A DNA stretch of 64,000 nucleotides from an uncultured Planctomycetales bacterium (GCA_964520655.1 CAZFNI010000006.1:78790-142789), one strand, 5' to 3'. Positions 9,092-47,700 are shown, numbered from the stretch's first letter. The notes: generated from the sequence alone by a model not told the origin. Program-made: numbers and translations.

Positions 9092-10279
9092 ATGAAAATC
9101 ATCTCAATTGCGAATCAAAAAGGCGGGTGCGGCAAAACGACCACGGCCATCAATCTGGCCTCGGCCCTGGCATTTAACGGACAGAAGGTCCTTCTCATTG
9201 ACCTTGATCCTCAAGCGCACGCGACACTTGGATTGAACATCGACGACGCTAACAGTTTGTACAATGTCATTTCGAAATTAACGCCTAGAAAATTGCGCAT
9301 CAAGGATATTATTACCCGTGCTGACAGGACGTTCGATGTGGTGCCGTCCAATGTTCTCGTTGGCACACTTGAACAAGAGTTGGCGGAAGAGATCGGTCGC
9401 GAGCTTAAACTGGTCGACGTGATCAATGAGATCAAGGGGTTGTATGATTATGTGCTCATCGATTGCCCGCCGTCGTTAGGGTTCCTGACGGTCAATGCGA
9501 TCCGTGCCAGTAACGAGGTCATTATCCCTGTTGAGACCAGTCGTTTCTCCATGCAGGGTGTTGACCACCTGCACGACATCATTTTCCTGATCCGCGACCG
9601 TTTGAACCACCCGGTCACAAGCAGGGTGCTCATCACCATGTTCGATTCGCGTTTACGTCATTCCTTCACCATGCTGGCCAAGATGAAGGATAAGTTCGGT
9701 AAGCTGTTGTATGATACCATTGTTCATGTGAACGTGAAACTAAAGGAAGCAGCGGTCATGGGGGAAGCGGTGCTCAAGTATGATAAATATTGCCGCGGAT
9801 CCAAAGATTATCTGGGCCTCGCGCGTGAGATATTGACCGACGATAAGGTTCTATCCATGCCTGCTCGTGAGAAAACCGTCAAGGCCAAACCTGTTGCTGT
9901 TGAGGCGCGGTCTCAGGAAGAGATCGTTCAGGCTGTGGCTTCCGCCATGGAGGATGCAGCGGATTATCAGCCTTCCGAGCGCATGCAGGAAATTGTTTCC
10001 AAAGAAGCGGCGTCGTTCGCTGGTTCGGCTTTCTTTAAGCTTAATGCTCCCCAGGCGCAGTCGGTGTATGTGACGGGATCTTTCAATGACTGGTCGTTGG
10101 ATGAATCTTGCCGCATGAAGAATATCGGCGGTCTCTGGACGTTGCAACTGCCTTTGAAGCCTGGCATGTATAAGTATCAATTCATTGTCGACGGTAAATG
10201 GCAGGAAGATCCTGAGAACAAAATGATCGAACGCAACTCTTTCGGTGACGTCAATTCCCTTATTGAGGTCCAGGGTTAA
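9092..10279 (+). CDS. ParA/MinD-family P-loop ATPase fused to a C-terminal CBM48 / AMPK-beta glycogen-binding domain
   Basis: Deviant Walker A ANQKGGCGKTTTAINLA, plus DLDPQ and LIDCPPSLG motifs of ParA/Soj. After a linker, the C-terminal ~80 aa read YVTGSFNDWSLDE...WTLQLPLKPGMYKYQFIVDGKWQEDPEN, the classic AMPK1_CBM/CBM48 signature. Confidence 0.75.
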   Translation: MKIISIANQKGGCGKTTTAINLASALAFNGQKVLLIDLDPQAHATLGLNIDDANSLYNVISKLTPRKLRIKDIITRADRTFDVVPSNVLVGTLEQELAEEIGRELKLVDVINEIKGLYDYVLIDCPPSLGFLTVNAIRASNEVIIPVETSRFSMQGVDHLHDIIFLIRDRLNHPVTSRVLITMFDSRLRHSFTMLAKMKDKFGKLLYDTIVHVNVKLKEAAVMGEAVLKYDKYCRGSKDYLGLAREILTDDKVLSMPAREKTVKAKPVAVEARSQEEIVQAVASAMEDAADYQPSERMQEIVSKEAASFAGSAFFKLNAPQAQSVYVTGSFNDWSLDESCRMKNIGGLWTLQLPLKPGMYKYQFIVDGKWQEDPENKMIERNSFGDVNSLIEVQG

Positions 10280-20008: not shown

Positions 20009-20752
20009 ATGGAAAGCAGTAATCCTACATTGAATAATAAAGCGTTTGTCGAAGCCCAGGTTGTCGGCGGTGCGCCGGCGATGACCATACAAGGGACGGT
20101 CAATAAATCGCTTATTTTGCTTGGGTTGTTGATCGCGTCTGCATTTGCGACATGGTCGATGTTGTCCAGCGTGAACGCCGGTTCTGTGGGCATTTTATTG
20201 TTAGTCGGCGGTATCGGTGGTCTTATTTTGGCCATTGCCACCAGTTTTAAACCTAACTGGGCACCGGTCACGGCTCCTTTGTATGCGGTTTGCGAAGGAG
20301 TTGTTTTGGCATTGATCTCCGCTTTTTTTGAAATGCGCTATCCTGGCATTGTCATCCAGGCCGTCGGTTTGACCTTTGCGGTGACCTTAGTCATGCTCAT
20401 GGGATACAAGGCGGGTTTCTTCGCCGCGACCCCGGCGCTGCGCAAGGGCATGATGATCGCCATGGGCGGTTTGATGCTGTTCTATGTGGTAGTCATGATC
20501 GCAGGCTTCTTTGGTATCAAGCCTCCAGCATTCATCAGCGGTGGCGGTCCTTTGGGGATTGCGTTTAGTTTATTCATCGTCGGTCTGGCTTCTATGAGCC
20601 TGATCCTGGATTTTGATTTCATTGAACAGGCTTCCAAGAACGGACTGGACAAACGCATGGAGTGGTATGGAGCTTTCACGCTCATGGTCACGTTGGTCTG
20701 GCTGTATATGGAAATCTTGCGCCTTTTAAGCAAGCTTCAGTCGCGTGATTAA
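20009..20752 (+). CDS. Polytopic membrane protein, possibly Bax-inhibitor-1/YccA family
   Basis: AGGAGG RBS 8 nt upstream of the ATG at 20009. About 7 predicted TM helices. The family assignment is tentative. Confidence 0.45.
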   Translation: MESSNPTLNNKAFVEAQVVGGAPAMTIQGTVNKSLILLGLLIASAFATWSMLSSVNAGSVGILLLVGGIGGLILAIATSFKPNWAPVTAPLYAVCEGVVLALISAFFEMRYPGIVIQAVGLTFAVTLVMLMGYKAGFFAATPALRKGMMIAMGGLMLFYVVVMIAGFFGIKPPAFISGGGPLGIAFSLFIVGLASMSLILDFDFIEQASKNGLDKRMEWYGAFTLMVTLVWLYMEILRLLSKLQSRD

Positions 20753-21758
20753 TAGCATTGATAAAATGATGTTATTAAAAGCCCTGGCAGAATATGCCAG
20801 GGCTTTTGCATTGGCAGCGATGTTTTCTCTCCTGATGTTCCGTCATGCTGCTGCCGGCGATCACACAATTGAATTTGGATTCTCCGCGATCACTAAAGAA
20901 GGCGGCCTGCCGCATTACCGCGCGATCAAGAATTTTGAATCTCGGACCGGCGTCGCGGTCAAGACCATGAATTGGTATATGGGTTTTAACGGGGATGACA
21001 GACGCCTTCCGGATATCCCGCTGCGCCGGATGAGTGAATACGCGAACCGGGACATCACGCTCATGCTGACCTTGGAGCCGTGGGGCAATTCAACAGACTG
21101 GAAGGGGCGTGCCATTGATCCTCTTGGATCCATCAATGACGGGCTTCTTGACGGGTATATCCGAAAGATGGCCCGCCAGCTGCGGGATTTCGGTCATCCC
21201 ATCCGCCTGCGTTTTGGTCATGAGATGATCCAGGACGACCATCTTGACACCAAAGGCTGGTATCCTTGGCAGGACAGGCCTGAAGCGTACAGGTCCGCGT
21301 TCATCCGTGTGCGCGATATATTTATCGACGAACATGCGCTCAATGTCGAGTTTGTCTGGTCGCCCAATTATAGTCCTGCGCATCTGGAGATCTTAAAGAA
21401 ATACTATCCTGGACCGGAGTATGTTGATTGGATCGGCATGGATGGGTATAACTGGAACGGGGAAAGTTTTGATGGCATCTTTAAAGGCTTGTATCAGACG
21501 ATCCTCGAGCATCCTGAGGTTTTTGGCCAAAAGCCGCTCATGATCGCCGAGTTTGCCTGCGGGGCTGATAAGAAATTGCTGGATTTCAACAAAGCACGGT
21601 GGATGAAAGACGCCTTTAGCCGTATCTTGATAAAATATCCTCTGGTCAAAGCGGTATATTGGTTGAATTTAAAAAAGGAACGCGATTGGCGTTTGGATTC
21701 ATCGCCGGAAAGTTTGGATGCATTCAAGGAGGCGATGAAAGCCTGGCAAGGTCAATGA
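20745..21758 (+). CDS. Glycoside hydrolase, clan GH-A, GH26-like (beta-mannanase-like)
   Basis: Signal-peptide-like N-terminus. RLRFGHEM acid/base motif and LMIAEFA nucleophile context resemble GH26. Confidence 0.5.
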   Translation: MINSIDKMMLLKALAEYARAFALAAMFSLLMFRHAAAGDHTIEFGFSAITKEGGLPHYRAIKNFESRTGVAVKTMNWYMGFNGDDRRLPDIPLRRMSEYANRDITLMLTLEPWGNSTDWKGRAIDPLGSINDGLLDGYIRKMARQLRDFGHPIRLRFGHEMIQDDHLDTKGWYPWQDRPEAYRSAFIRVRDIFIDEHALNVEFVWSPNYSPAHLEILKKYYPGPEYVDWIGMDGYNWNGESFDGIFKGLYQTILEHPEVFGQKPLMIAEFACGADKKLLDFNKARWMKDAFSRILIKYPLVKAVYWLNLKKERDWRLDSSPESLDAFKEAMKAWQGQ

Positions 21759-23350
21759 CGCCGGGCTTTGATGTCGTACATCCGCTGTTCAAAAAGGCTG
21801 TGGGCCTTAAACGGTTTGTCGGTAAACCACATGACCCACAAGCGTTTGATCTTCGAAGGTGAGCGCAGATAGCTTAAGGTGTAATAGACCGCGAACCCAA
21901 GCGCGCGGTAGATCATCAGCTCGACGCCGCTGATCGCCCGGCAGAATGACGAGGGGATGGTCAGGTCGAACTGGGTGATCAGATGCTTGAAATAATTGTC
22001 GTCGATCTTCCCTAAACGTCCTTCTTTTTCTAACTCTGTGAATAGCTCGCTTCCCGGATAGGGTGAGAACGGGCTGATATTGCAGTCCTGGACTTTAAGC
22101 AAGGCCAGTTTCCATGCAAAGAACAATGTTTTGAACACATCAATGCGCGTTTCAAAAGGAAACCCGATGATGAAGTTGACCTTGACGATCATGCCCTTGG
22201 CGATCGCGATGGCGACAGACTCTTCCAGCTTTTTTAAATGGACTCTTTTTTTGATCATGTCGAGCGTTCTTTGTGAGCCGCTTTCCGGCGCGTAGACGAC
22301 GAATTCACACCCGGTTTCTTTAAGACCAGTGAGGACTTCCTCATCCAGACTTTCTGAACGCGTTCCTGATGGGAGCTGCCAGACGGTCTTGATGCTGCGT
22401 TTTTTGAGCGCCGCGATCAATTCCAGGATCCATTCTTTCTTGACAACAGCCGTTAAGTCGTAGAAATCGATGCTCGTGATCTGATATTTTTTGATATAGT
22501 CTTCGATCTCGTCGATCACATCACCGACGTCGCGCATGGTGTAGCGGGTGGTCCACATCGTCGGGTTGGAACAAAAGGTGCATTGATAGGGGCAGCCACG
22601 CGTGGCGATCATGGCCATATTACGGCCATGAGAGATGCCCATGGTGAAATTTGGCTGAAAATACGGTTCTAAATTGATCAAATGCCAGGACGGCCAGGGC
22701 ATTTTTTTGATGTCTGCGAGACGATTTAACTGGCCTGAACGCACGACGGTGCCGTTGTCACGGTAGGCAATGCTGCGGATGTTGCGTATATCCAAAGAAT
22801 TCCTTATTTTGTGGCACAATTCCAAGAATGTCAATTCGCCTTCGCCCATCACGATATAGTCCACAGCCTTGCAGTCATTCATGGAATATTCCGGCATGGC
22901 CGTGGGATGTTCGCCGCCGATCACGATCGTGGCTTTAGGAAAAGCGCGCCGGATCTTTTGGATATAGTCCCGGACGAAAGGCCATTCCTGCGAGAACATG
23001 ATGCTCACCCCGATGATATCCGTCTTAGGATCGATCAATTTGATCGACTCATCCACATCCTGGCCTTGAACATGAAAATTCCCGTCAGCTGTTAATTGGA
23101 TCCGGTCAATGCCGTTGCCGGGACAGTCGATGATGCGGGCAGTGTATCCGGCTTTTTCTAAAACCCCGGCAATATAGGCCAGTCCGATCGGCAAGGCAAT
23201 GGGGGTGCTGTAGGATGTCCTGGAAAAAATGATCGGAGCTCTGATCAGGGTGATGGGTCTAGTGTCCGCAGGGTTGTTCTTAAAGACAAAAAGCGCGTCC
23301 GCGATGGTGGTGCTGCTGGCGGGCGTGATGTAGCGTACATTTCCACTCAT
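21752..23350 (-). CDS. B12-binding domain radical SAM protein (class B rSAM, likely methyltransferase)
   Basis: N-terminal cobalamin-binding domain. Radical SAM motif ATRGCPYQCTFCSNP. 532 aa. Divergent from the CDP-sugar operon. Confidence 0.8.
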   Translation of the reverse strand: MSGNVRYITPASSTTIADALFVFKNNPADTRPITLIRAPIIFSRTSYSTPIALPIGLAYIAGVLEKAGYTARIIDCPGNGIDRIQLTADGNFHVQGQDVDESIKLIDPKTDIIGVSIMFSQEWPFVRDYIQKIRRAFPKATIVIGGEHPTAMPEYSMNDCKAVDYIVMGEGELTFLELCHKIRNSLDIRNIRSIAYRDNGTVVRSGQLNRLADIKKMPWPSWHLINLEPYFQPNFTMGISHGRNMAMIATRGCPYQCTFCSNPTMWTTRYTMRDVGDVIDEIEDYIKKYQITSIDFYDLTAVVKKEWILELIAALKKRSIKTVWQLPSGTRSESLDEEVLTGLKETGCEFVVYAPESGSQRTLDMIKKRVHLKKLEESVAIAIAKGMIVKVNFIIGFPFETRIDVFKTLFFAWKLALLKVQDCNISPFSPYPGSELFTELEKEGRLGKIDDNYFKHLITQFDLTIPSSFCRAISGVELMIYRALGFAVYYTLSYLRSPSKIKRLWVMWFTDKPFKAHSLFEQRMYDIKARRH

Positions 23351-23457
23351 AATGTCACCAGATTATCATGTTTTTTTCCAAATGCTATTCATTTTTAGAT
23401 GATGCTAACCTGTTGTATTTTAACGGGCTTTGTGCTATAAAAAAGCATATGAAAAAT

Positions 23458-24222
23458 ATGAAAGTCGTTATCTTGGCCGGCGGGATGGGTACCAGATTAT
23501 CGGAAGAAACAGACACCAGGCCTAAGCCCATGGTTGAGATCGGCGGCAAACCGATCCTTTGGCACATCATGAAATACTACAGTGCCTTCGGATTCAAGGA
23601 ATTTGTCATTGCCCTGGGGTATAAGGGGCATCTGATCAAAGATTTCTTTGTTAATTATCATCTCCACCACAGCGACCTAAGTGTTGATATCAAGGACGGT
23701 TCGGTGCGTCTCAATAAAGCGCCCGCGGAAGACTGGCGCGTGCATTTGGTCGACACTGGTTTGCATTCCGGAACTGCCGGACGGTTAAAAATGCTCAAAT
23801 CTTATTTAAAGGGAACATTTTTAATGACGTACGGCGACGGGGTCAGCAATGTGGATCTAACAGCGCTGATCACACATCACCGCCGTTGTAAAAAAGCCGC
23901 GACCTTGACCGCTGTCAGACCGCCCGCTCGTTTTGGTAACTTAAGCTTTAAAGGAACATCCCAGGTGCAGTTTTCCGAGAAATCACAAGTGGCTGAAGGC
24001 TGGATCAACGGCGGATTTTTCGTTCTTGAGCCCAAAGTCCTTGATCTGCTGGATGATACTAAAGAAATGTTCGAACAGCGCCCTTTGGAAACATTGTCCG
24101 TCAAGGGACAGCTCAATGCGTATAAGCACGAAGGGTTTTGGCAGTGCATGGACACCCTGCGTGATGTGAAACTCTTAAACCAGCAGTGGGACGCCGAGCA
24201 GGCGCCCTGGAGAATATGGTGA
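23458..24222 (+). CDS. rfbF: Glucose-1-phosphate cytidylyltransferase
   Basis: MKVVILAGGMGTRLSEETDTRPKPMVEIGGKPILWHIM is near-identical to the RfbF/DdhA N-terminus. An alternative start lies at 23449. Confidence 0.88.
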   Translation: MKVVILAGGMGTRLSEETDTRPKPMVEIGGKPILWHIMKYYSAFGFKEFVIALGYKGHLIKDFFVNYHLHHSDLSVDIKDGSVRLNKAPAEDWRVHLVDTGLHSGTAGRLKMLKSYLKGTFLMTYGDGVSNVDLTALITHHRRCKKAATLTAVRPPARFGNLSFKGTSQVQFSEKSQVAEGWINGGFFVLEPKVLDLLDDTKEMFEQRPLETLSVKGQLNAYKHEGFWQCMDTLRDVKLLNQQWDAEQAPWRIW

Positions 24223-25193
24223 TGGATTTTTGGAAAGACCGCAGTGTTCTGATTACAGGAGCCTCAGGGCTGGTTGGTTCATGGCTGACAGAGCAGCTTG
24301 TCTTAAACCAGGCCCGAGTCACGGTTTTGTTGCAGGATGTGCATGCGCGTTCCCCTTTTATGAAGAACGCGCATGGGAACGTGCATTGTTTTTATGGTCA
24401 GCTCGAAGATAGGGTGATCGTTGAGAAAGCGCTGCTGATATCGGAAGCGGACACGGTCTTTCATTTAGGCGCCCAGACCATCGTCGGGAATGCATTGACG
24501 ACCCCCTGGATCACTTTTGAGGCCAATGTGCGCGGGACATACAATGTCCTGGAAGCTTGCCGTGGTCAAGGTAAGGGGTTAAAAGCGGTCGTGATCGCTT
24601 CCAGCGATAAAGCCTATGGAGACTCATCGCGTCTGCCGTATACGGAGGATATGCCGTTAAACGGCATTGCGCCTTACGATGCTTCTAAAGTTTGCACCGA
24701 AGTCATTGCGAGATCATATGCGAGTACTTACGGTTTGCCGGTCATTGTGGCGCGCTGCGGGAATATTTACGGCGGGGGAGATATGAATTTCAGCCGTTTG
24801 ATCCCGGGCACGATCAAGTCCTTGATCTTTGACCAGGCGCCCATCATCCGTTCTGACGGAACATTTGTCAGGGATTATGTGTATGTCAAGAATGTGGCGG
24901 ATGTCTATATGAAGCTCGCGCATCTGGCCCACCAGAACAAGGCCATCGGGGAGTCTTTTAATTACAGCGACGACGCTCCTAAGAAAGTCCTGGAAGTCGT
25001 CGATATGATCATCCGTGTGATGGGTAAGCCCCATTTAAAGCCTGTGATCCAAAATAACGCGGCGCATGAAATTCACGACCAGCATTTGTCCAGCGCTAAA
25101 TTGCGTTCTTACGTGGATCTTGCGCAGTTGTCAAGCATGGAGAAGTCATTAACCGAAACGATCGGCTGGTACCATGAATTCTTCCGACAATAA
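24216..25193 (+). CDS. rfbG: CDP-glucose 4,6-dehydratase
   Basis: Rossmann GASGLVGSWL and the SDR catalytic YDASK motif. Overlaps the rfbF stop (ATGGTGATGG). Confidence 0.85.
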   Translation: MVMDFWKDRSVLITGASGLVGSWLTEQLVLNQARVTVLLQDVHARSPFMKNAHGNVHCFYGQLEDRVIVEKALLISEADTVFHLGAQTIVGNALTTPWITFEANVRGTYNVLEACRGQGKGLKAVVIASSDKAYGDSSRLPYTEDMPLNGIAPYDASKVCTEVIARSYASTYGLPVIVARCGNIYGGGDMNFSRLIPGTIKSLIFDQAPIIRSDGTFVRDYVYVKNVADVYMKLAHLAHQNKAIGESFNYSDDAPKKVLEVVDMIIRVMGKPHLKPVIQNNAAHEIHDQHLSSAKLRSYVDLAQLSSMEKSLTETIGWYHEFFRQ

Positions 25194-26148
25194 ACAAAAT
25201 GTACCACTTACCGGAAAAGTATTTCTAGTCACCGGTGCGGATGGTTTCTTGGGGGCGGCGCTGGTTAAAATGCTGCTGGCCCAAGGCGCGCGAGTGTACG
25301 GCCAGGTCCGTTCTCTAGAGAACCTGAAGCGATTAGATGCTTCTGCCGAAGGGCTGACGCTTATTCCTTTTGATCTGATGAAGCCGGACTGGGACGTATT
25401 TAAGTCGCATGTGCCAAGCGGTATTGATGTGTTGATCCATACCGCCGCCGCCGGGGTCAGGCCTGATGATAATACCTGGGAGACGCTGTCGCGTGTGAAT
25501 ATCGACGGAACCCAGGGGATGCTGGATACGGCAGCTGTCAAAAAAATAGGACGTTTTGTCTATATTGGATCAAGTTTTGAGTACGGCGACGGGAATTTGT
25601 GGGAAGAGAGCGCGCCGATACGACCCAGGACTTTGTACGGTGTCAGCAAGAGTGCCGGCTGGATGCTGGCTAAGTGTTATGCGGAAACATATCAGCTGCC
25701 GATCGTGGGTTTTCGTCCGTTCTATATGTATGGTCCTAATGAAGGCAAGGAGCGGCTCATCTCTGCGGTCATCCATTCTGCTTTTTCAAGAACATTGCTG
25801 CCGATGACCCTGGGTGAGCAGGAAAGGGATTTTGTTTATATCGACGATGTGGTTCGCGCGATCTTGTGCGGCAGCGTTGAGCCTAGAGCGGCCGGTGAAA
25901 TTTTTAATATCTGCACAGCGGAGTCTGTTTCTATCCGAAAAGTTATTGGATGTTTGGAAGAAGAATCAGGCAAGGCCTTTCCTCTGGCCTGGGGGCAGCT
26001 TCCCTACCGCAAAATGGAATGGGTGCATCTCTCCGGGTCGGGCAATAAGGCCAAACAGTTGCTGGGGTTCATGCCCTTAGTTGGATTACGTGAAGGTTTA
26101 AAAAAGACTTATGAGCATTACCAGAAGCAGTATATTGGGGCAAGTTAA
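25174..26148 (+). CDS. NAD-dependent epimerase/dehydratase family protein. Candidate CDP-paratose synthase/epimerase or CDP-abequose synthase.
   Basis: GADGFLGAALV Rossmann fold and a YGVSK catalytic motif. Sits between rfbG and rfbH, as in dideoxyhexose clusters. Confidence 0.7.
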   Translation: MNSSDNKQNVPLTGKVFLVTGADGFLGAALVKMLLAQGARVYGQVRSLENLKRLDASAEGLTLIPFDLMKPDWDVFKSHVPSGIDVLIHTAAAGVRPDDNTWETLSRVNIDGTQGMLDTAAVKKIGRFVYIGSSFEYGDGNLWEESAPIRPRTLYGVSKSAGWMLAKCYAETYQLPIVGFRPFYMYGPNEGKERLISAVIHSAFSRTLLPMTLGEQERDFVYIDDVVRAILCGSVEPRAAGEIFNICTAESVSIRKVIGCLEEESGKAFPLAWGQLPYRKMEWVHLSGSGNKAKQLLGFMPLVGLREGLKKTYEHYQKQYIGAS

Positions 26149-27415
26149 GGCGTTTTCACAGGAGTCTTCGCTCGCGAGATCGTTCGTTGCTGGCAAAACC
26201 TATATCCCGGTATCCGGAAAAGTATTGGATGCTGACGATTATGCGTTCTTGGTTGATGCCTGTCTTGATGGTTGGCTGACAGCAGGCCGTTTTACCGACG
26301 CATTTGAAAAGGATCTGTGCGCGGCAACGGGTGTTCGTTTTGCCAGCATGGTCAATAGCGGTTCCTCAGCGAATTTACTGGCCGTATGCGCGTTGACCTC
26401 AAAGTCTTTGGGAGCAAGGGCGCTCAAGCCAGGCGATGAAGTGATCGCGACTGCCGCTGGTTTTCCCACGACCCTTAATCCCATCATTCAGAATGATCTT
26501 GTGCCAGTCTTTGTGGATGTCGATCTATCCACCATGAATGTGGATGTGACAAAGCTTGAAGCCGCGATCAGCCCTAAAACCAAGGCCATGATCTTCGCGC
26601 ATACGCTGGGCAATCCTTTTGATATCGCGGCTGTTAGGGCCTTGGCTCAGAAACATGGGTTGTGGCTCATTGAGGATTGCTGCGACGCTTTAGGGGGGAC
26701 ATATGACGGTAAGTCCGTCGGGAGTTTTGGGGACATTGCCACATTGAGTTTTTATCCGGCGCATCATATCACGACTGGCGAAGGCGGGGCGGTGCTGACT
26801 AACAATGCCGTCTTGCAGAAGGCCATTTTATCGTTCCGTGACTGGGGCAGGGACTGCTGGTGCGCGACAGGTAAAGACAACACCTGCGGGAAGAGATTCG
26901 GCTGGCAGCTGGGCAAATTGCCTCAGGGGTATGATCATAAATACATTTATTCACACATCGGCTATAATCTGAAAGCCACCGACATGCAGGCGGCGCTGGG
27001 CGTCTCGCAAATAAAAAAACTGCCGGGATTTGTCCAGATCCGTCGGGACAATTGGCAGGCGTTGCGCTCGGGATTAGACACCTTGTCAGGGCGATTGTCA
27101 TTTGTTGAACCAACCAAGCGATCAGTGCCCAGCTGGTTCGGGTTTATCCTCATGGTCAATGATCCGCGTATCAAGCGTGATGATCTGGTGCGTCATTTGG
27201 AATCTAAAATGATCGGGACGCGGATGTTGTTCGGAGGGAATCTATTAAGCCATCCAGCCTATGAAGCCATCAACCACCGCATTGCGGGTTCTTTGAGCGC
27301 CAGTCAACGCGTGACTGACGATGTATTGTGGATCGGGGTTTATCCGGGGATCACTCCTGAGATGATCGCGTATATGACCGAAACCATAAAACAATTCGTG
27401 AAGGAACGAGCATGA
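26111..27415 (+). CDS. rfbH: CDP-6-deoxy-D-xylo-4-hexulose-3-dehydrase (E1; DegT/DnrJ/EryC1 fold)
   Basis: 434 aa PLP/PMP-dependent aminotransferase-fold protein with RfbH-like length and N-terminal region. Cluster context with rfbF and rfbG. Confidence 0.75.
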   Translation: MSITRSSILGQVKAFSQESSLARSFVAGKTYIPVSGKVLDADDYAFLVDACLDGWLTAGRFTDAFEKDLCAATGVRFASMVNSGSSANLLAVCALTSKSLGARALKPGDEVIATAAGFPTTLNPIIQNDLVPVFVDVDLSTMNVDVTKLEAAISPKTKAMIFAHTLGNPFDIAAVRALAQKHGLWLIEDCCDALGGTYDGKSVGSFGDIATLSFYPAHHITTGEGGAVLTNNAVLQKAILSFRDWGRDCWCATGKDNTCGKRFGWQLGKLPQGYDHKYIYSHIGYNLKATDMQAALGVSQIKKLPGFVQIRRDNWQALRSGLDTLSGRLSFVEPTKRSVPSWFGFILMVNDPRIKRDDLVRHLESKMIGTRMLFGGNLLSHPAYEAINHRIAGSLSASQRVTDDVLWIGVYPGITPEMIAYMTETIKQFVKERA

Positions 27416-28359
27416 GCCGTACATTGAACGTTTTGTCCGTTGTCATTCCCTGTCATAATGAGGAAGAAGTCCTGCCTTCGACGCACAAGCATTTGACCGG
27501 TTTGTTGACCGGATTAAAGCAGTCTAAGCTGATCGGGGATTATGAGATCGTTTTCGTCAATAATGGCTCTACAGACAATACGGCTGCCGTGATGCTGCGA
27601 TTGTTCAAAGAAGATCCGCATGTGCAGGTCGTTGACCTGCGCCGCAATTTCGGCTATCAGGCCTCCATTACGTCGGGGCTGGATGCGGCCACAGGCGACG
27701 CGGTGGTGACGATCGACGCAGATCTGCAGGACCCCCCGGAGAAGATCGAGGAAATGATCCATCATTACAACAAGGGCTATGACCTGGTCCTAGGGATACG
27801 TCAGGACCGGTCGACGGATAGTTTCTTCAAACGCGTGTTCTCTCAATTTTTTTACCGTTTTTCCCAATGGATGGGGGTGGAGGTCGTTTATAATCACGGC
27901 GATTTTCGTTTGATGGCCAGATCCTTACTGGACCAATTCAAGGAAATGGCTGAGCGCGACCGCTTTATCCGGGCCATGATCCTCTATCTGGATAACCACT
28001 ATGCCAGTGTCTTTTATGAAAGGCAAAGCCGCAAGATGGGTCGGACTAAATTCTTTGTCGGGGATCTGCTGGCACTTGCCATGGACGGCATTATTTCGTA
28101 TTCGTATAAACCTTTGCGCATGATGTCTTTGTTCGGGTTATTTACCAGTATAGTTGCGCTTGTCCTGGCCTGCTGGGTCGTTTATATGAAATTGATGTTT
28201 AACATCATCATGGGCTGGGCCTCAACCTTGCTGCCCATTGTATTTTTCGGCGGTATCCAGTCATTGTTCCTGGGGATCATCGGTGAATATGTCGGTCGAC
28301 TTTACGCGGAGGTCAAAGCCCGTCCTCTTTACGCTATCCGCGCCATCCATAAACATTGA
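27412..28359 (+). CDS. Family 2 glycosyltransferase, polyprenyl-phosphate sugar transferase type (GtrB/ArnC/DPM1-like)
   Basis: GT2 DxD motifs (TIDADLQD) in an N-terminal catalytic domain, followed by two C-terminal TM helices. Confidence 0.8.
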   Translation: MSRTLNVLSVVIPCHNEEEVLPSTHKHLTGLLTGLKQSKLIGDYEIVFVNNGSTDNTAAVMLRLFKEDPHVQVVDLRRNFGYQASITSGLDAATGDAVVTIDADLQDPPEKIEEMIHHYNKGYDLVLGIRQDRSTDSFFKRVFSQFFYRFSQWMGVEVVYNHGDFRLMARSLLDQFKEMAERDRFIRAMILYLDNHYASVFYERQSRKMGRTKFFVGDLLALAMDGIISYSYKPLRMMSLFGLFTSIVALVLACWVVYMKLMFNIIMGWASTLLPIVFFGGIQSLFLGIIGEYVGRLYAEVKARPLYAIRAIHKH

Positions 28360-28438: not shown

Positions 28439-29221
28439 ATGACCGAAGAATCTAAACCAACACCACAAGCAACCCCGACTTTGGGGGTTCCGCCCCAGAA
28501 GAAGGGCTTTAAGATCAAGGCCGGTGCCGTCTTGACCGTCTTGGCTGTCCTTATATTGGGGGCCGGCGAAGCAGTGATATTCTTAAGGCATTCCAATCAG
28601 ATCGATCAGACCCAAAAAGATGCCGTTGATCAGAAAGACATGCTTAACAGCGTCAATGTCCAGATCAGCAGCCTTAATGATAAGCTTAAGGAAATGAAGA
28701 AACAGAACGATGCCCTGGAAGTGGCCATTGCCGGCCAACAGGGGACGGTTGACTCTATCAGAAAAGATTATGGCGTGTTCCAGGTCAAGGCCAAGAGCGT
28801 TGAGGGTAAATTAAGTGAACTGAAAGAAGAATTCAATGACAAATTTGTCCGTTCCGAGAAAGAAATAAGGGACGTAAGAACATTGATCGAACCGCTCAAA
28901 TCCGGGATCAACTTAGTCAAAGATAATACGGAAGCCTGGCAGAAAGATTATATGGCCACGTTAAATGACCTGCAGAACAGGGTAGCCCAGGTCTCGGCGG
29001 ATGTGGAAAAGGCGGATCAGGAACTTTATAAAAAGATCGAGTTCATCAGCATGGTCCAGGAAAAGATGATCCGGGACCTGTCTTTAGATAATCCTTCATT
29101 AAGGGGCAAATCTCCCGAGATCCCCGATCCGACCCAGGTCATGCACCGGGAAACGGTCAATAATTCTCAGCCCGAACCTCAAGAAAAGATCGACCAGCCG
29201 GCTGAGGATCTCTCCAAGTAA
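28439..29221 (+). CDS. Hypothetical membrane-anchored coiled-coil protein
   Basis: N-terminal TM helix (AVLTVLAVLILGAG), then a long heptad-rich charged region. Confidence 0.5.
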   Translation: MTEESKPTPQATPTLGVPPQKKGFKIKAGAVLTVLAVLILGAGEAVIFLRHSNQIDQTQKDAVDQKDMLNSVNVQISSLNDKLKEMKKQNDALEVAIAGQQGTVDSIRKDYGVFQVKAKSVEGKLSELKEEFNDKFVRSEKEIRDVRTLIEPLKSGINLVKDNTEAWQKDYMATLNDLQNRVAQVSADVEKADQELYKKIEFISMVQEKMIRDLSLDNPSLRGKSPEIPDPTQVMHRETVNNSQPEPQEKIDQPAEDLSK

Positions 29222-29229
29222 CGTTTGAT

Positions 29230-29889
29230 CTATTGATGTATCTTTTTCTTATTTAATTCGTAGATAATATCCAGCAGGATCAAGATTGCGGCCAGTCCAA
29301 GCAGGAAAATGCCTTTGGGGCTGATGCTTTTGTGTTCGATGAGCAGGCGTGTTTTCAGGTGGAACGCGATCATGAGGATGATGACCCAGAAAAAAGGTTT
29401 ATGTTCCTTGCTGTCGATCAGGCGTTTTAAACTAAAGGGCCATTTCTCGCCTTGGGGGTAAGGGTTAAGGGTCGGCAACATGGCAGGGACTTTGGCGGTG
29501 TAATTGCGGTAGTCCTCGCCGAATTTGGCCTCCAGCATTCCTTGTTCGTCACGGATCGTTTTGTAATAGATCAATGCCAAAGCCAGGATAAACAGCAGGC
29601 CAGCCCATCCCGTGTTCAGTAGAATGCAGAAGCCGATACAGATCAGAAAAGTTCCCAGATATAACGGATTGCGGACAAATGCATAAGGGCCTGAAGTTGT
29701 CAGGCGGTCATTCTTGATGGCATAGCCGTTGGACCACAGGCGGATGAGCAGCCCGGCGATCACATATCCCACGCTGGCGCGGATGGAATGTTCGGTTGTC
29801 TGTCCGAAAATAGCGACTAAGATCCCGAAAGGATAGATGACAGCAAATCGGGGTTTGAACCAGCGGTTTAAGCGGTGCGATAAATTCAT
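29230..29889 (-). CDS. Isoprenylcysteine carboxyl methyltransferase (ICMT/PEMT) family membrane methyltransferase
   Basis: GPYAFVRNPLYLG...EEQGMLEAKFGEDYRNY motif set. Confidence 0.7.
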   Translation of the reverse strand: MNLSHRLNRWFKPRFAVIYPFGILVAIFGQTTEHSIRASVGYVIAGLLIRLWSNGYAIKNDRLTTSGPYAFVRNPLYLGTFLICIGFCILLNTGWAGLLFILALALIYYKTIRDEQGMLEAKFGEDYRNYTAKVPAMLPTLNPYPQGEKWPFSLKRLIDSKEHKPFFWVIILMIAFHLKTRLLIEHKSISPKGIFLLGLAAILILLDIIYELNKKKIHQ

Positions 29890-43786: not shown

Positions 43787-44699
43787 ATTAAAGGATACCG
43801 CGGCGGCTATAGGTATTTTTGACGGGGTGCACCGGGGGCATCGTTATTTGCTCGGAAAAATGCTGGCTAAGGCCAGAACCCACCGTTATACGTCCGCGGT
43901 CATCACATTTTTCCCGCACCCTGCCCATGTCCTGCGTCCCGACCTGCAGCTGAAATATTTAACCACTATGGCTCAGCGTATGTGTTTGCTTGAGGAGCTT
44001 GGGGTGGACATTTGTCTGGTTGTTCGTTTTACAAAGACTTTTGCGCATGTGAAACCGGAGTCTTTCATTAAGAATGTCCTGGTCCGTCAGCTGGGCGTCA
44101 AAGAGTTATTTGTCGGCGATGATTTTCGTTTCGGCCGGGAACGCGCCGGTGATGTGGGGTTATTTCGATCGCTGTCTAAAGAATGTGGTTACAGTATGCA
44201 TGGGGTCAAGGCATTAAAAAATGGGGGGAAGCCAGTGAGCAGTACCCGCATTCGGCGGATGGTCGTGCAAGGTGATCTCTTAAGTGCAAAAAAATTATTG
44301 GGCCGGGACTTTAGCTGCGAAGGTAAGGTTGTTAAAGGCGACGGCCGCGGCAAGACCCTTGGTTTTCCGACAGCCAATATTGATTATCAGAACGGGATCA
44401 TGCCTCCCAACGGGGTTTATGCGGTTGTTGTTGCACATAAACGTAAATTCTACAAAGGCGTGGCCAATTTGGGGTTTCGTCCTTCTTTTGAAACAGCATC
44501 TCCAAAACCGCTTTTGGAAGTGCATTGCTTTGACCTGCATCAAGATATCTACGGGGATTTGATCGAAGTTTCTTTTATCAGGAAGATCCGAGACGAGCGC
44601 TCTTTCCCCTCAGTAGAAATGCTCACCCAACAGATCAACAGGGATGCCGTCAAGGCGCGTGGCATTCTACGATCCCATAGGGTATACTTGTCCCGGTAG
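43755..44699 (+). CDS. ribF: Bifunctional riboflavin kinase / FMN adenylyltransferase
   Basis: N-terminal FAD synthetase motifs (GIFDGVHRGH). C-terminal riboflavin kinase (GRGKTLGFPTANI...E). Confidence 0.9.
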   Translation: MKVILLTSKVKLKDTAAAIGIFDGVHRGHRYLLGKMLAKARTHRYTSAVITFFPHPAHVLRPDLQLKYLTTMAQRMCLLEELGVDICLVVRFTKTFAHVKPESFIKNVLVRQLGVKELFVGDDFRFGRERAGDVGLFRSLSKECGYSMHGVKALKNGGKPVSSTRIRRMVVQGDLLSAKKLLGRDFSCEGKVVKGDGRGKTLGFPTANIDYQNGIMPPNGVYAVVVAHKRKFYKGVANLGFRPSFETASPKPLLEVHCFDLHQDIYGDLIEVSFIRKIRDERSFPSVEMLTQQINRDAVKARGILRSHRVYLSR

Positions 44700-44724
44700 T
44701 ATATATACTACCTTTCGGGAAAAT

Positions 44725-47700
44725 ATGATGTTATTGCGGCCCATTATCCATTTTAGCGTTATTCTTTCTTTGCTCGTCACATCCGTGATGCCTTTGTCCA
44801 GGGCATCGGCGGCGCCTTTGTCTGATCTTCCTAAAGCCGGCACAATGGTTGCTTTAAGTCAAGCCTATCAACCTGCGATCATCCGGGGCATCACCGTCCA
44901 TCCAGATGATCCGTTTATCTTCGATTTTATTGTGGATGCCGGGCAGGACAAGCTGCAGGGCGAGGCATTGAATATGGAAGGGGATAAGCTGGTCAAATAT
45001 TTCCTGGCGGCCCTTGCGGTGCCAGAGAAGGAATTGTGGGTCAACTTAAGTCCTTATGAACAAGAACGCGTTATTCCTGAAGGGTTGGGGCAAACCGATA
45101 TGGGACGCGATCTTTTGGCGCAGGATTATATTTTAAAGCAATTGACCGCATCATTGATCTATCCGGAAAAGGAACTGGGCAAGAATTTCTGGGACAAGGT
45201 TTACAGTCAGATGCAAGCTAAATACGGCAAGAGCGTCAATGTTCCGGTAAATACTTTTAATAAAGTCTGGATCATGGCGGATCAGGCTGAGGTGTTTGAG
45301 CGTGCTCAGACGGCCATGGTGACCAAGAGTCACTTGAAGGTCATGCTGGAGGAGGATTATTTAGCGATGAATAGAAATGCGGCGGGTGGCGCTGAAGTTG
45401 GTGCTTTTGCCCGCAGCGACAGGGGGTCAATGGCTTTATTCCCAGCTACCCCACGGGGGGATGGGTGGCGCGAGGACAAAAGCACCAATTCAGCGACAGG
45501 ACCCGCTCTTGCTAGCCAGGTCATAAAGGAAATCATCCTTCCTGAACTCGAACGTGAAGTGAACACGGGAAAGAATTTCGCGCCGCTGCGTCAGATATTT
45601 CATTCCATCATCCTGGCTGGTTGGTACAAGAATAATTTGAAGGAGGCGTTGCTCAATCAGGTCTATTCAGATCAGAACAAAGTGCGCGGTATTGATCTTG
45701 ATGATAAAACAGTCAAACAGCAAATTTATGAACAATATTTGAAGGCGTATAAAAAAGGCGTGTTCAATTTTATCAAGGATGACATGGTCGAGGGACGCAT
45801 GGTTCCCCGGAAATATTTCTCCGGCGGGGTCGATGCCGCGATGGCCCTTCATCCCAAAAGAACAACGGACAGTGCCATGCTCATCACCGGCCTTGCTGGT
45901 GCTTTGCTTCAGGCGATCACGGTTAGATTAAAAAGGAATGATGTGAAGAAAGAGAAAAAGACCGCCCCTAGCGAACAATTCCGAGTGATCATCAGCAAGT
46001 TGATCAACAATATACAGGGTCCGGATAAGTGGGTCATGCGTCCTTTGTATAACCGTTGGGAAGTAGGGGTGACAGTTGAGGGCTGGCCAAGAACCGTTGA
46101 TGGAAAGAGTACGGCCAGTGCCGAGGACTCCAGGATGCTGTTGGATATTTCTCGGGAGTTTCAACAGGTTTTTCCTGATGCTGTATTTGCTGTGGGGGCA
46201 CAGAATTGGAATCTGCGGATCGTTTATATCGTTAAGACAGAGGCAGAAGCTTTTAGGGTGAAAAACATGCTTAACAGTTCTTCAGTCACTTCAGATATGG
46301 TCCAGTTGCTGGAGAGCTATCTGAAAGAAGGAAAAGCGGCTCCTAGGTCTGGCGAGGCCGCAAAGGAACGTAAGTCCGACGCCGCGATGCAAAGCCTCCC
46401 CAAGGAATATGTGCTTAGGGTGAAGCGTTTGGAGAAATATGAAGCACATACGACCTCTCAGGCGATGATTGATCAATTAATGCGGGATAAGGAACGTCTG
46501 GAATCTACAGAGAAATATATGACAGGACAAATGGAAAGAGGATTTGCTTACGATTTTCAAAAGAAGGAAGCCCAAGCCCGTCTAGAGAGGGTGCAGAAGG
46601 ATTTGATCATTATAAAAAAAGCGTTAGAGGTGTGGGAAGAAATACGACTTGCCCAGATCCCTCATTTAAGCCGCAGGGATATAGTGAATGCTTTTGTTAG
46701 GGATTTTGGTTTGGATTATGGCGTTGGAGGAGAAGAGGAGGCTTATGACTATTCGTTAAAAAGGGATGAATCGATCCTGCCTTTTCTAAAGTTCCTAAAG
46801 AGTAAACAAGGTGCGAATATTCCTTTGGTGGTCATCAATCAACCCGACGGCCAAATTGTGGACCCGGGCATTCAAGAAATGATGGGTTTTGGGATCGATG
46901 CGAAAGAAGCATTAAGGATCTTAGCTGTTTATCTTGATCCGCGCGCTGCCTCTGTTGTGGAGGCCGTATTGAACATGACCATTGAATTGTCAGGGGCATT
47001 AAGCGAAAAGGGTATCCATGCTGCGGATGAGATAGCAATTTATATCATCAATCAAATGGGGTTAGACGGCGGAGACGCTATTACAGATAGTGCCATGCTG
47101 GGAGAGCTTATCCGTGATTATTATCCTTTGCCGAGAAGCACACTTCATCCTCTAAAGATGATGGATCAGCTAAAAGCACGATTAAACAGCCGGACAGACC
47201 GCGAGTGGGTCGCGGTTTCTGACAGCGAAGACGTGCTGCGCCGCGTGCGTTGGGACGTGCATTTTTCTTTAGATGGTCAGGATCATACATTGAATGGTTT
47301 TCTGGCAACGCTTGGACTGCCAAGTGAATTCCATCAAAATCTTGAGCGCGACGGAGGTGCGTCGGTGATCATCTATGATGTAAATACACGCGCCTTGACC
47401 GGTCGCGTTCACCGCGCTTTGACCGCGTTGGCCAGGGAATTAAGAGCTGACCAAAAATTCAACCACCGTTATAGCATTAAGTTGACGCCCAATAAGGATC
47501 AACAGTACTTCCCGGGAACGCTGCATACAGCTAGAATCGCTTTTTCCGTCAGGGAGAATGAACCCAGGGCTGAAAAGTATTATGATTCAACGAACTGGAT
47601 GGTGCGGCTGCGGGCATTGTCGACAAATGAATTACAGGGGTTGCTGGCTCAGGAAGAGCGTATTGTTCGAGAAGTCAAGAATGGGGTCAGTGATTCCGCG

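Follow-up and report, generated by a model that had tools for sequence, protein, structure and literature searches.

The 64,000-nucleotide stretch of DNA considered here, which comes from an uncultured Planctomycetales bacterium (GCA_964520655.1, CAZFNI010000006.1:78790-142789) and is referred to below as the window, carries a compact group of sugar genes. Five consecutive plus-strand genes encode what appears to be a complete cytidine diphosphate (CDP)-3,6-dideoxyhexose pathway ending in a glycosyltransferase of the lipid-carrier type, and a gene for a class-B-like radical S-adenosylmethionine protein (rSAM in what follows) is transcribed away from them on the opposite strand (Table 1). We describe the enzymes encoded at this locus, the distribution of rSAM homologues beside sugar genes in other bacteria, and the role that rSAM may play in tailoring a cell-surface deoxysugar.

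Gene content of the locus

The genes were identified by listing open reading frames (ORFs) and scanning them against Pfam and NCBIfam profiles with curated cut-offs, and all those named in an earlier interpretation of the same DNA (the sequence-only reading) were found where it had placed them.

Table 1. Features of the sugar locus, with positions counted from the first nucleotide of the window. SDR, short-chain dehydrogenase/reductase; GT2, family 2 glycosyltransferase; PMP, pyridoxamine 5'-phosphate; TM, transmembrane; aa, amino acids; nt, nucleotides.
Feature	Position	Strand	Evidence
GH26-like protein	20745-21758	+	PF02156, 40 bits vs cut-off 20; signal-like N-terminus
Class-B-like radical SAM protein (rSAM), 532 aa	21752-23350	-	PF02310 71 bits + PF04055 74 bits
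Divergent intergenic region, rSAM gene / rfbF	23351-23448		~98 nt (98-107 nt depending on rfbF start)
RfbF, glucose-1-phosphate cytidylyltransferase	23449-24222	+	TIGR02623, 370 bits vs cut-off 300
Extended SDR 1 (SDR1), non-canonical CDP-glucose 4,6-dehydratase type	24186-25193	+	TIGR02622 173 bits, below cut-off 278
Extended SDR 2 (SDR2), probable CDP-4-keto-3,6-dideoxyhexose 4-reductase	25174-26148	+	Pfam Epimerase
RfbH, E1-type CDP-6-deoxy-L-threo-D-glycero-4-hexulose 3-dehydrase (PMP + [2Fe-2S])	26111-27415	+	NF011936, 676 bits vs cut-off 423
GtrB/ArnC-type GT2, polyprenyl-phosphate glycosyltransferase	27412-28359	+	5EKP 229 bits; two C-terminal TM helices

As listed, the plus-strand ORFs overlap or abut one another, with overlaps of 20 nt between SDR1 and SDR2, 38 nt between SDR2 and RfbH, and 4 nt between RfbH and the GT2, which fits a single operon. 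The ORF listed for rfbF begins at 23368, the TIGR02623 match starts from its residue 31, and the ATG lies at 23449 or 23458; the true start of SDR1 is probably an ATG at about 24216-24222. The GH26-like gene and the rSAM gene are convergent, their ends overlapping by 7 nt. One weak sigma-70-like match (23340-23369, plus strand) is found in the divergent region between the rSAM gene and rfbF, where the count of promoter-like sites does not exceed that of shuffled sequences, and the terminator scan gave a similar outcome. Rfam matched only a tRNA-Pro, with no cobalamin or other riboswitch and no match of any kind in the intergenic region.

A dideoxysugar pathway with an E1-type 3-dehydrase

For comparison, two sets of loci were used, members of which are cited below by L numbers: 79 loci carrying rSAM homologues (39-84% identity, 1.34 Mb in total, one genome per GTDB species), searched by tblastn with the window proteins, and the 80 metagenome-contig loci with the best RfbH matches (55-61% identity; L090-L169). 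Within the window, RfbF is 53% identical to the Salmonella enzyme. SDR1 is less canonical, in that it fails the equivalog cut-off of TIGR02622 even though this is its best model, it is 27-28% identical to canonical RfbG, and its best PDB matches are thymidine diphosphate (dTDP)- and CDP-glucose 4,6-dehydratases, the two being tied. It has the S-D-K (SSDK) and YxxxK motifs that we take to be the catalytic motifs of CDP-glucose 4,6-dehydratases, and its gene is placed between rfbF and rfbH. About half of the 80 RfbH loci likewise encode a protein of the SDR1 type (39-50% identity), either flanked by rfbF and rfbH or immediately ahead of rfbH, examples of this use of the RfbG slot being L090, L091, L097, L103, L117, and L120. 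On account of the motifs and of this RfbG position in related loci, but with a score below the cut-off, we accept SDR1 as a putative 4,6-dehydratase and not as a member of TIGR02622, and on sequence grounds two non-orthologous types of RfbG seem to exist. SDR2 has YxxxK and no dehydratase D-K/D-E pair; its best reference match (32%) is an oxidoreductase encoded directly downstream of rfbH on an Azospirillum plasmid, it is weakly similar to Salmonella paratose synthase, and it is a probable 4-ketoreductase. The CDP-3,6-dideoxyhexose core put forward in the sequence-only reading is thus supported by RfbF, a 4,6-dehydratase-type SDR, a second SDR, and RfbH.

No 3,5-epimerase belongs to the cluster in the window, a point in which it departs from the related Pelagibacteraceae and Spirulina loci. 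In those two rSAM-linked RfbH loci an RfbC-like 3,5-epimerase is encoded on the minus strand (L025, 6084-6548, and L058, 11693-12268, respectively), which suggests that they make a sugar of the L-configured ascarylose type; since no such epimerase is found in the window, the final sugar would differ among loci that share rSAM.

RfbH aligns end to end with the E1 enzyme of Yersinia pseudotuberculosis (PDB 3BCX; 533 bits, residues 8-429 to 10-432), compared with 174 bits for ColD, and is 55% identical to Salmonella RfbH. Its His218-His219 pair (FYPAHH) falls at the position of E1 His220, the catalytic histidine that replaces the aminotransferase lysine (PDB 3BB8 being the H220K mutant of E1), and the cysteines of the [2Fe-2S] motif are kept (Cys191-x57-Cys249-x-Cys251-x7-Cys259), a motif that ColD does not have. 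The two scores, the histidine, and the Fe-S cysteines together make RfbH an E1-type, reductase-dependent 3-dehydrase, neither of the ColD type nor an ordinary DegT aminotransferase, so that the E1 assignment of the sequence-only reading stands. Read from the ATG at 26111, RfbH has no exact counterpart in the public protein collection, whereas the sequences of rSAM, the GT2, and PNPase do match there; the public gene call for RfbH probably uses a different start codon.

In the E1/E3 systems of Yersinia and Salmonella, the homologues of RfbH (AscC and DdhC) are partnered by the E3 reductases AscD and DdhD. The window shares with these systems the RfbF-RfbG-RfbH core and the E1 histidine and Fe-S motif, but differs from them in its divergent 4,6-dehydratase, in a 4-reductase that is not RfbS- or RfbJ-like, in having no Wzx/Wzy O-unit genes, with the sugar apparently going to a GtrB-type GT2 instead, and in encoding no E3. 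No Fer2/FNR-type E3 occurs among the scanned window ORFs of at least 150 aa. With a genuine Salmonella DdhD, taken from an unannotated gap in the plasmid rfb locus, as query, tblastn found no match with an E value under 2 in the window, and none under 1 in either the 79 rSAM loci, those with a linked RfbH included, or three RfbH plasmid loci (Azospirillum, Qipengyuania, and Desulfobaculum). None of the 80 best RfbH metagenome loci has an E3 within the fetched flanks; E3 is found next to rfbH in Salmonella plasmids and one Sphingomonas plasmid.

A precedent for such an arrangement is SpnQ, the Fe-S 3-dehydrase of spinosyn forosamine biosynthesis, which is served by general ferredoxin/flavodoxin reductase pairs (PMC8987622). 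The likeness, which is one of description and not of alignment, lies in an E1-type enzyme being encoded without an E3; the substrate of SpnQ is a dTDP-2,6-dideoxy sugar and its context a secondary-metabolite cluster, whereas the setting in the window is that of a CDP-sugar and an envelope glycan. Given the 80 environmental and three plasmid loci without E3, together with the SpnQ precedent, the missing E3 does not distinguish this locus. Its absence from the cluster is the norm outside a few lineages, and is neither a defect of the pathway nor a novelty; the sequence-only reading was correct that no E3 is encoded in the cluster, and mistaken in treating this as an unusual feature. By analogy, RfbH presumably receives its electrons from general ferredoxin/flavodoxin reductases and not from a dedicated E3. 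Across L090-L169, E3-less rfbFGH cassettes feeding a lipid-carrier GT2 appear to be the common environmental form.

The GT2 itself matches Synechocystis GtrB over its full length (5EKP, residues 7-310 to 27-327) and ArnC end to end (9HWJ, 158 bits), has a DAD motif (DxD) and TM helices at residues 234-269 and 271-294, and lies below the specific equivalog cut-offs (PgfS 247 vs 500 bits, ArnC 169 vs 529). These matches support a polyprenyl-phosphate glycosyltransferase of the GtrB/ArnC type, which would transfer the sugar to polyprenyl phosphate, in agreement with the sequence-only reading. The resemblance to the three-component glycosylation systems of GtrB, ArnC, and CsbB extends to the YfhO or PMT_2 C-fold glycosyltransferases (GT-C) seen in related loci: large polytopic membrane proteins are encoded in 47 of 76 rSAM loci, and 12 of the 36 that were scanned match GT-C families (PMT_2 in seven cases, PMT in two, and YfhO, GT87, and GT22 in one each), the others giving no match. 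The locus differs from those systems in its donor, which would be a CDP-3,6-dideoxyhexose and not UDP-Glc, UDP-GlcNAc, or UDP-Ara4FN, in having no flippase or GT-C adjoining it in the window, and in its rSAM partner, which the known systems do not have.

Neighbourhoods of the rSAM family

At least one homologue of the window sugar genes accompanies rSAM in 55 of the 79 rSAM loci. The most frequent partners are an SDR (39 loci) and a full-length GtrB-type GT2 (26), followed by other DegT proteins (19), RfbF (11), and E1-type RfbH (8), with the GT2 lying within 1 kb of rSAM in 12 loci and an SDR within 300 nt of it in 12. Unsupervised clustering of all neighbouring ORFs in about 76 loci, which serves as an internal control against gene families that are abundant everywhere, returned the sugar-gene families of the window as the only recurrent ones, the next family being present in 6 loci.

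The closest rSAM relative with known context (P0003, 75%) is syntenic with the window, its housekeeping flanks included, and by itself proves little; the arrangement of rSAM and sugar genes is kept in a syntenic relative (L003/L004). More telling are the distant phyla. Two loci of Elusimicrobia (L040 and L042) have the order RfbF>RfbG>SDR>RfbH>GT2>rSAM in one tight operon, L010 and L085 read rSAM>RfbF>RfbG>RfbH>SDR>GT2 with a YfhO GT-C ahead, a locus from Omnitrophota (L008) reads rSAM>RfbF>RfbG>RfbH, and rearranged variants occur in Spirulina (L058) and Pelagibacteraceae (L025 and L039). Beyond Elusimicrobia, an E1-type RfbH is found near rSAM in four lineages, two of which have all six gene types; the E1 Fe-S and histidine motifs are kept in all six of the rSAM-linked RfbH proteins that were checked, and the RfbH-linked rSAM proteins occupy no fewer than four distinct regions of the rSAM family tree. 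Pairs of the form GT2>rSAM without RfbH are found in Magnetospirillum, Hyphomicrobiales, Acidobacteriota, and Gemmatimonadota. The linkage of the rSAM family to nucleoside diphosphate (NDP)-sugar and GtrB-type genes across phyla is therefore recurrent and real, and the co-conservation of rSAM with the cluster, which the sequence-only reading had made part of its test, holds in close relatives and far beyond them.

As far as our literature searches go, this association, optional though it is, between the rSAM family and polyprenyl-phosphate monosaccharide loci of many phyla is undescribed: they yielded nothing relevant on this rSAM family, nor any B12-dependent radical SAM enzyme with CDP-sugar, GtrB, or O-antigen genes. 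A search of a plasmid collection gave a single distant match to rSAM, from Clostridium and without annotated context, and the many homologues at 50-65% identity in Omnitrophota, Acidobacteriota, and other groups have generic names only. The closest rSAM locus, L006 (84% identity), and the named homologues point to Omnitrophota. No further conserved partner is found within the rSAM clade of the window, save a protein of about 452 aa that is common to two loci. This protein, which has no Pfam match and no counterpart in the window, is encoded directly upstream of rSAM (L010, 8508-9866, and L008, 29-1156), the two copies being 51% identical. More distant rSAM genes often lie beside arrays of rSAM paralogues, which occur in tandem or within 20 kb in Polyangiaceae, Binataceae, and deltaproteobacterial loci (L055, L053, L060, L082, and L052), with four or five copies of the family in Minicystis rosea DSM 24000 (L055). 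Minicystis rosea is one of several cultured bacteria that have the family, others being Magnetospirillum moscoviense BB-1 (L018), Magnetospirillum sp. LM-5 (L019), and Spirulina sp. CCY15215 (L058).

The sugar locus is flanked by housekeeping genes, comprising pnp, ftsK, rodZ, a MiaB-like gene, pgsA, pgpA, and a BaxI-like gene on the upstream side, and cinA and riboflavin genes downstream, with the dcw cluster farther along. The GH26-like gene was considered as a member of the module and rejected, being conserved only in the close syntenic relatives L001, L003, and L004; the hydrolase that the sequence-only reading had noted just upstream thus lies outside the recurrent module. Next after the cluster is a gene for a TM-anchored coiled-coil protein (28439-29221), followed by one for a four-TM membrane methyltransferase of the PEMT/ICMT type (29230-29889, minus strand), which is weakly similar to the Leptospira lipid A 1-phosphate methyltransferase LmtA (64 bits vs cut-off 325). 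Elsewhere, the window encodes an unusual fusion of a ParA/MinD-type ATPase (AAA_31) with a C-terminal glycogen-binding module (AMPK1_CBM / CBM48; 9092-10279, plus strand), and an 1839-aa ORF that starts with a signal-like hydrophobic segment and has no Pfam family at E <= 1e-5 (44644-50163, plus strand).

Possible roles of the radical SAM enzyme

rSAM consists of an N-terminal B12-binding domain (PF02310) and a Radical_SAM domain (PF04055), both above their cut-offs, with the CxxxCxxC motif at C252, C256, and C259, which is the class B architecture. The same order of parts, a B12-binding Rossmann domain at the N-terminus and then a CxxxCxxC core, is found in the class B C-methylases TokK, CysS, MgmA, and TsrM, from which rSAM differs in scoring above the cut-off of no named family. 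Its best NCBIfam match is the Sden_1168 P-methylase (167 vs 575 bits), other scores being 137 vs 481 for BchE, 127 vs 578 for HpnJ, 82 vs 500 for AprD4, and 49 vs 500 for TsrM, and MJ_1487 is also among the top matches. Foldseek comparison of an AlphaFold2 model of rSAM (built with 34 homologues; mean predicted local distance difference test 86, predicted template-modelling score 0.88) with the PDB placed AprD4 first, over the full length (E 3e-21, template-modelling score 0.77 over the target), followed by MgmA, TsrM, OxsB, CysS, and TokK. Profile comparison with the PDB ranks AprD4 first too, but for the core alone (E 1e-25, residues 217-460), whereas residues ~120-290 match the cobalamin-dependent methylases TokK, CysS, and MgmA by profile, with GGEH of rSAM aligned to GGPH of TokK. 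rSAM and AprD4 thus have in common the two-domain architecture, and AprD4 acts on a sugar ring; they differ in that identity is 18% and the N-terminal domain of AprD4 is unmatched by sequence, a domain reported not to bind cobalamin. We take AprD4 to be a sugar 1,2-diol dehydratase of apramycin biosynthesis that neither methylates nor uses cobalamin, and because of it the two-domain architecture alone is no proof of cobalamin use.

From these assignments the following pathway may be proposed. By homology, RfbF would convert glucose-1-phosphate into CDP-glucose, and SDR1, as a non-canonical 4,6-dehydratase, would convert CDP-glucose into CDP-4-keto-6-deoxyglucose. The E1-type RfbH would then remove the 3-hydroxyl group, using electrons from general ferredoxin/flavodoxin reductases, and SDR2 would yield a CDP-3,6-dideoxyhexose by reducing the 4-keto group. 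The GtrB/ArnC-type GT2 would load this sugar onto a carrier, presumably undecaprenyl phosphate, at the cytoplasmic face, and the lipid-linked sugar would be flipped and passed to an envelope acceptor by a GT-C encoded elsewhere. rSAM is a probable sugar-tailoring enzyme, since its family sits in sugar-modification loci across many phyla, and it would act on the deoxysugar at an unactivated carbon. C-methylation seems the most likely reaction because most characterised class B radical SAM enzymes are methylases, because the N-terminal domain of rSAM resembles those of cobalamin binders, and because a 3,6-dideoxyhexose has no vicinal diol. GenK and GenD1 provide a precedent for the methylation of sugar carbons, although by analogy and not by alignment, as they act on aminoglycoside pseudo-oligosaccharides and not on NDP- or polyprenyl-linked monosaccharides. 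Either the CDP-sugar or the sugar bound to undecaprenyl phosphate, not yet flipped, may serve as substrate, both being equally possible. The lipid-linked form is attractive as a common substrate, given that the NDP-sugar genes vary among loci and the polyprenyl-phosphate GT2 is the steadiest specific partner; that sugars can be edited at the lipid-linked stage is shown by ArnD, whose substrate is undecaprenyl-phosphate-Ara4FN. On balance we think it likely, if only by a little, that the five genes constitute a dideoxysugar and lipid-carrier route of this kind with rSAM as the tailoring enzyme of its deoxysugar, C-methylation being our leading guess.

A number of observations weigh against this interpretation, beginning with those that bear on whether rSAM belongs to the pathway at all. 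None of the 80 closest RfbH loci has a member of the rSAM family, from which it follows that the dideoxy pathway runs without rSAM and, as the top partners of rSAM are SDR and GtrB-type GT2 genes with or without RfbH, that rSAM is not dideoxy-specific. rSAM is an accessory that a locus may have or lack, with no tie to 3-deoxygenation. A GtrB-type GT2 is about as common near RfbH (25 of 80 loci) as near rSAM (26 of 79); association with a GT2 is characteristic of such loci in general, and may do no more than mark rSAM as a gene of glycan loci. No sugar-gene homologue is present in 24 of the 79 rSAM loci, and the nearest non-syntenic homologues of rSAM (P0004, 69%; P0005, 65%; P0011, 64%; L007 and L009) have no sugar genes nearby. 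In the window, co-transcription of rSAM with the sugar genes is not given, as they lie on opposite strands, and neither a GT-C nor a flippase is encoded near the cluster. As regards methylation, the cut-off of no methylase is reached, nor that of any other named class B family (PhpK, HpnR, and MgmA included), and the best match by both sequence and fold is the non-methylating AprD4.

The first group of these points is what one would expect if rSAM were a mere neighbour, acting in an unrelated pathway, with the operon making an unmodified lipid-carried 3,6-dideoxyhexose. The existence of close homologues that stand alone, the rSAM loci without sugar genes, the RfbH loci without rSAM, and the opposite strand in the window all favour such an explanation, and the arrangement in L003 and L004 could be plain synteny among close relatives. 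We nevertheless regard it as unlikely, though a serious contender, because Elusimicrobia and L010 have the six gene types, rSAM included, together in tight co-directional operons, with variants in three further lineages, and because non-glycan families reach at most 6 of about 76 loci, against 26-39 for the GT2 and SDR families.

The second group invites the explanation that rSAM resembles AprD4, OxsB, or HpnJ in function and does not methylate, catalysing instead a radical dehydration (a further deoxygenation, finished by an SDR), a rearrangement, or a ring contraction of the sugar. Besides the profile and fold matches to AprD4, the presence of HpnJ and BchE among the top NCBIfam matches speaks for it, as do the 12 loci in which an SDR lies within 300 nt of rSAM, which recall AprD4 and AprD3, the dehydratase-reductase pair of apramycin biosynthesis. 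However, the AprD4 equivalog score is far below its cut-off and the core alone aligns, the N-terminal domain matches cobalamin-binding methylases, and methylases make up most of the characterised class B enzymes. The expected end product of the pathway in the window would moreover have no vicinal diol, which disfavours an AprD4-type dehydration after the RfbH step. We consider this explanation improbable on the whole.

To our knowledge, no radical SAM enzyme serves as a reductase partner, which counts against the remaining proposal, that rSAM replaces E3. Such a substitution, with rSAM feeding electrons to the [2Fe-2S] cluster of E1, would account for the lack of an E3 in the window and in every rSAM-linked RfbH locus and would draw on the redox-active [4Fe-4S] cluster of rSAM, but we reject it as extremely improbable, since all 80 RfbH loci do without both E3 and rSAM, so that E1 needs neither nearby, 71 of the 79 rSAM loci are without RfbH, and SpnQ runs on general ferredoxin and flavodoxin systems (PMC8987622).

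Returning to a tailoring role for rSAM, the observation made in the sequence-only reading is confirmed and its interpretation holds in part. The pathway core, the E1 type of RfbH, the lipid-carrier GT2, and the co-conservation of rSAM are upheld; the special significance of the absent E3, a dideoxy-specific rSAM, and the inclusion of the GH26-like gene in the module are not. For the C-methylating B12 enzyme that it envisaged, the B12-binding/radical SAM architecture and the methylase-like N-terminal domain are borne out and the fold matches that of TsrM, but the TsrM profile score is far below cut-off and methylation itself remains a guess. There is nothing out of the ordinary in the core pathway, the GT2, or the missing E3; the rSAM association is a lead for enzymology and not a solved system. 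More tentatively, and with doubts outweighing our confidence, the rSAM family might be a new cobalamin-dependent class of envelope-glycan tailoring enzymes, which would modify (for example C-methylate) a deoxysugar on CDP or undecaprenyl phosphate as a fourth component of GtrB/GT-C systems spread over more than ten phyla (among them Pelagibacterales, Acidobacteriota, Elusimicrobiota, and Omnitrophota), and give rise to hitherto undescribed branched or unusual surface sugars.

The finding that E1-type 3-dehydrases of environmental bacteria are almost never encoded with an E3 corrects a common expectation. Most of what is known of class B radical SAM enzymes concerns the biosynthesis of antibiotics, cofactors, and lipids, and we know of none established in a polyprenyl-phosphate pathway for cell-surface glycans. 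If rSAM does tailor lipid- or CDP-linked deoxysugars, hitherto unknown branched or otherwise modified surface sugars would be expected in abundant and mostly uncultured lineages, such as SAR11 relatives, soil Acidobacteriota, Elusimicrobiota, and Omnitrophota, and envelope glycosylation in these lineages would be linked to the availability of cobalamin.

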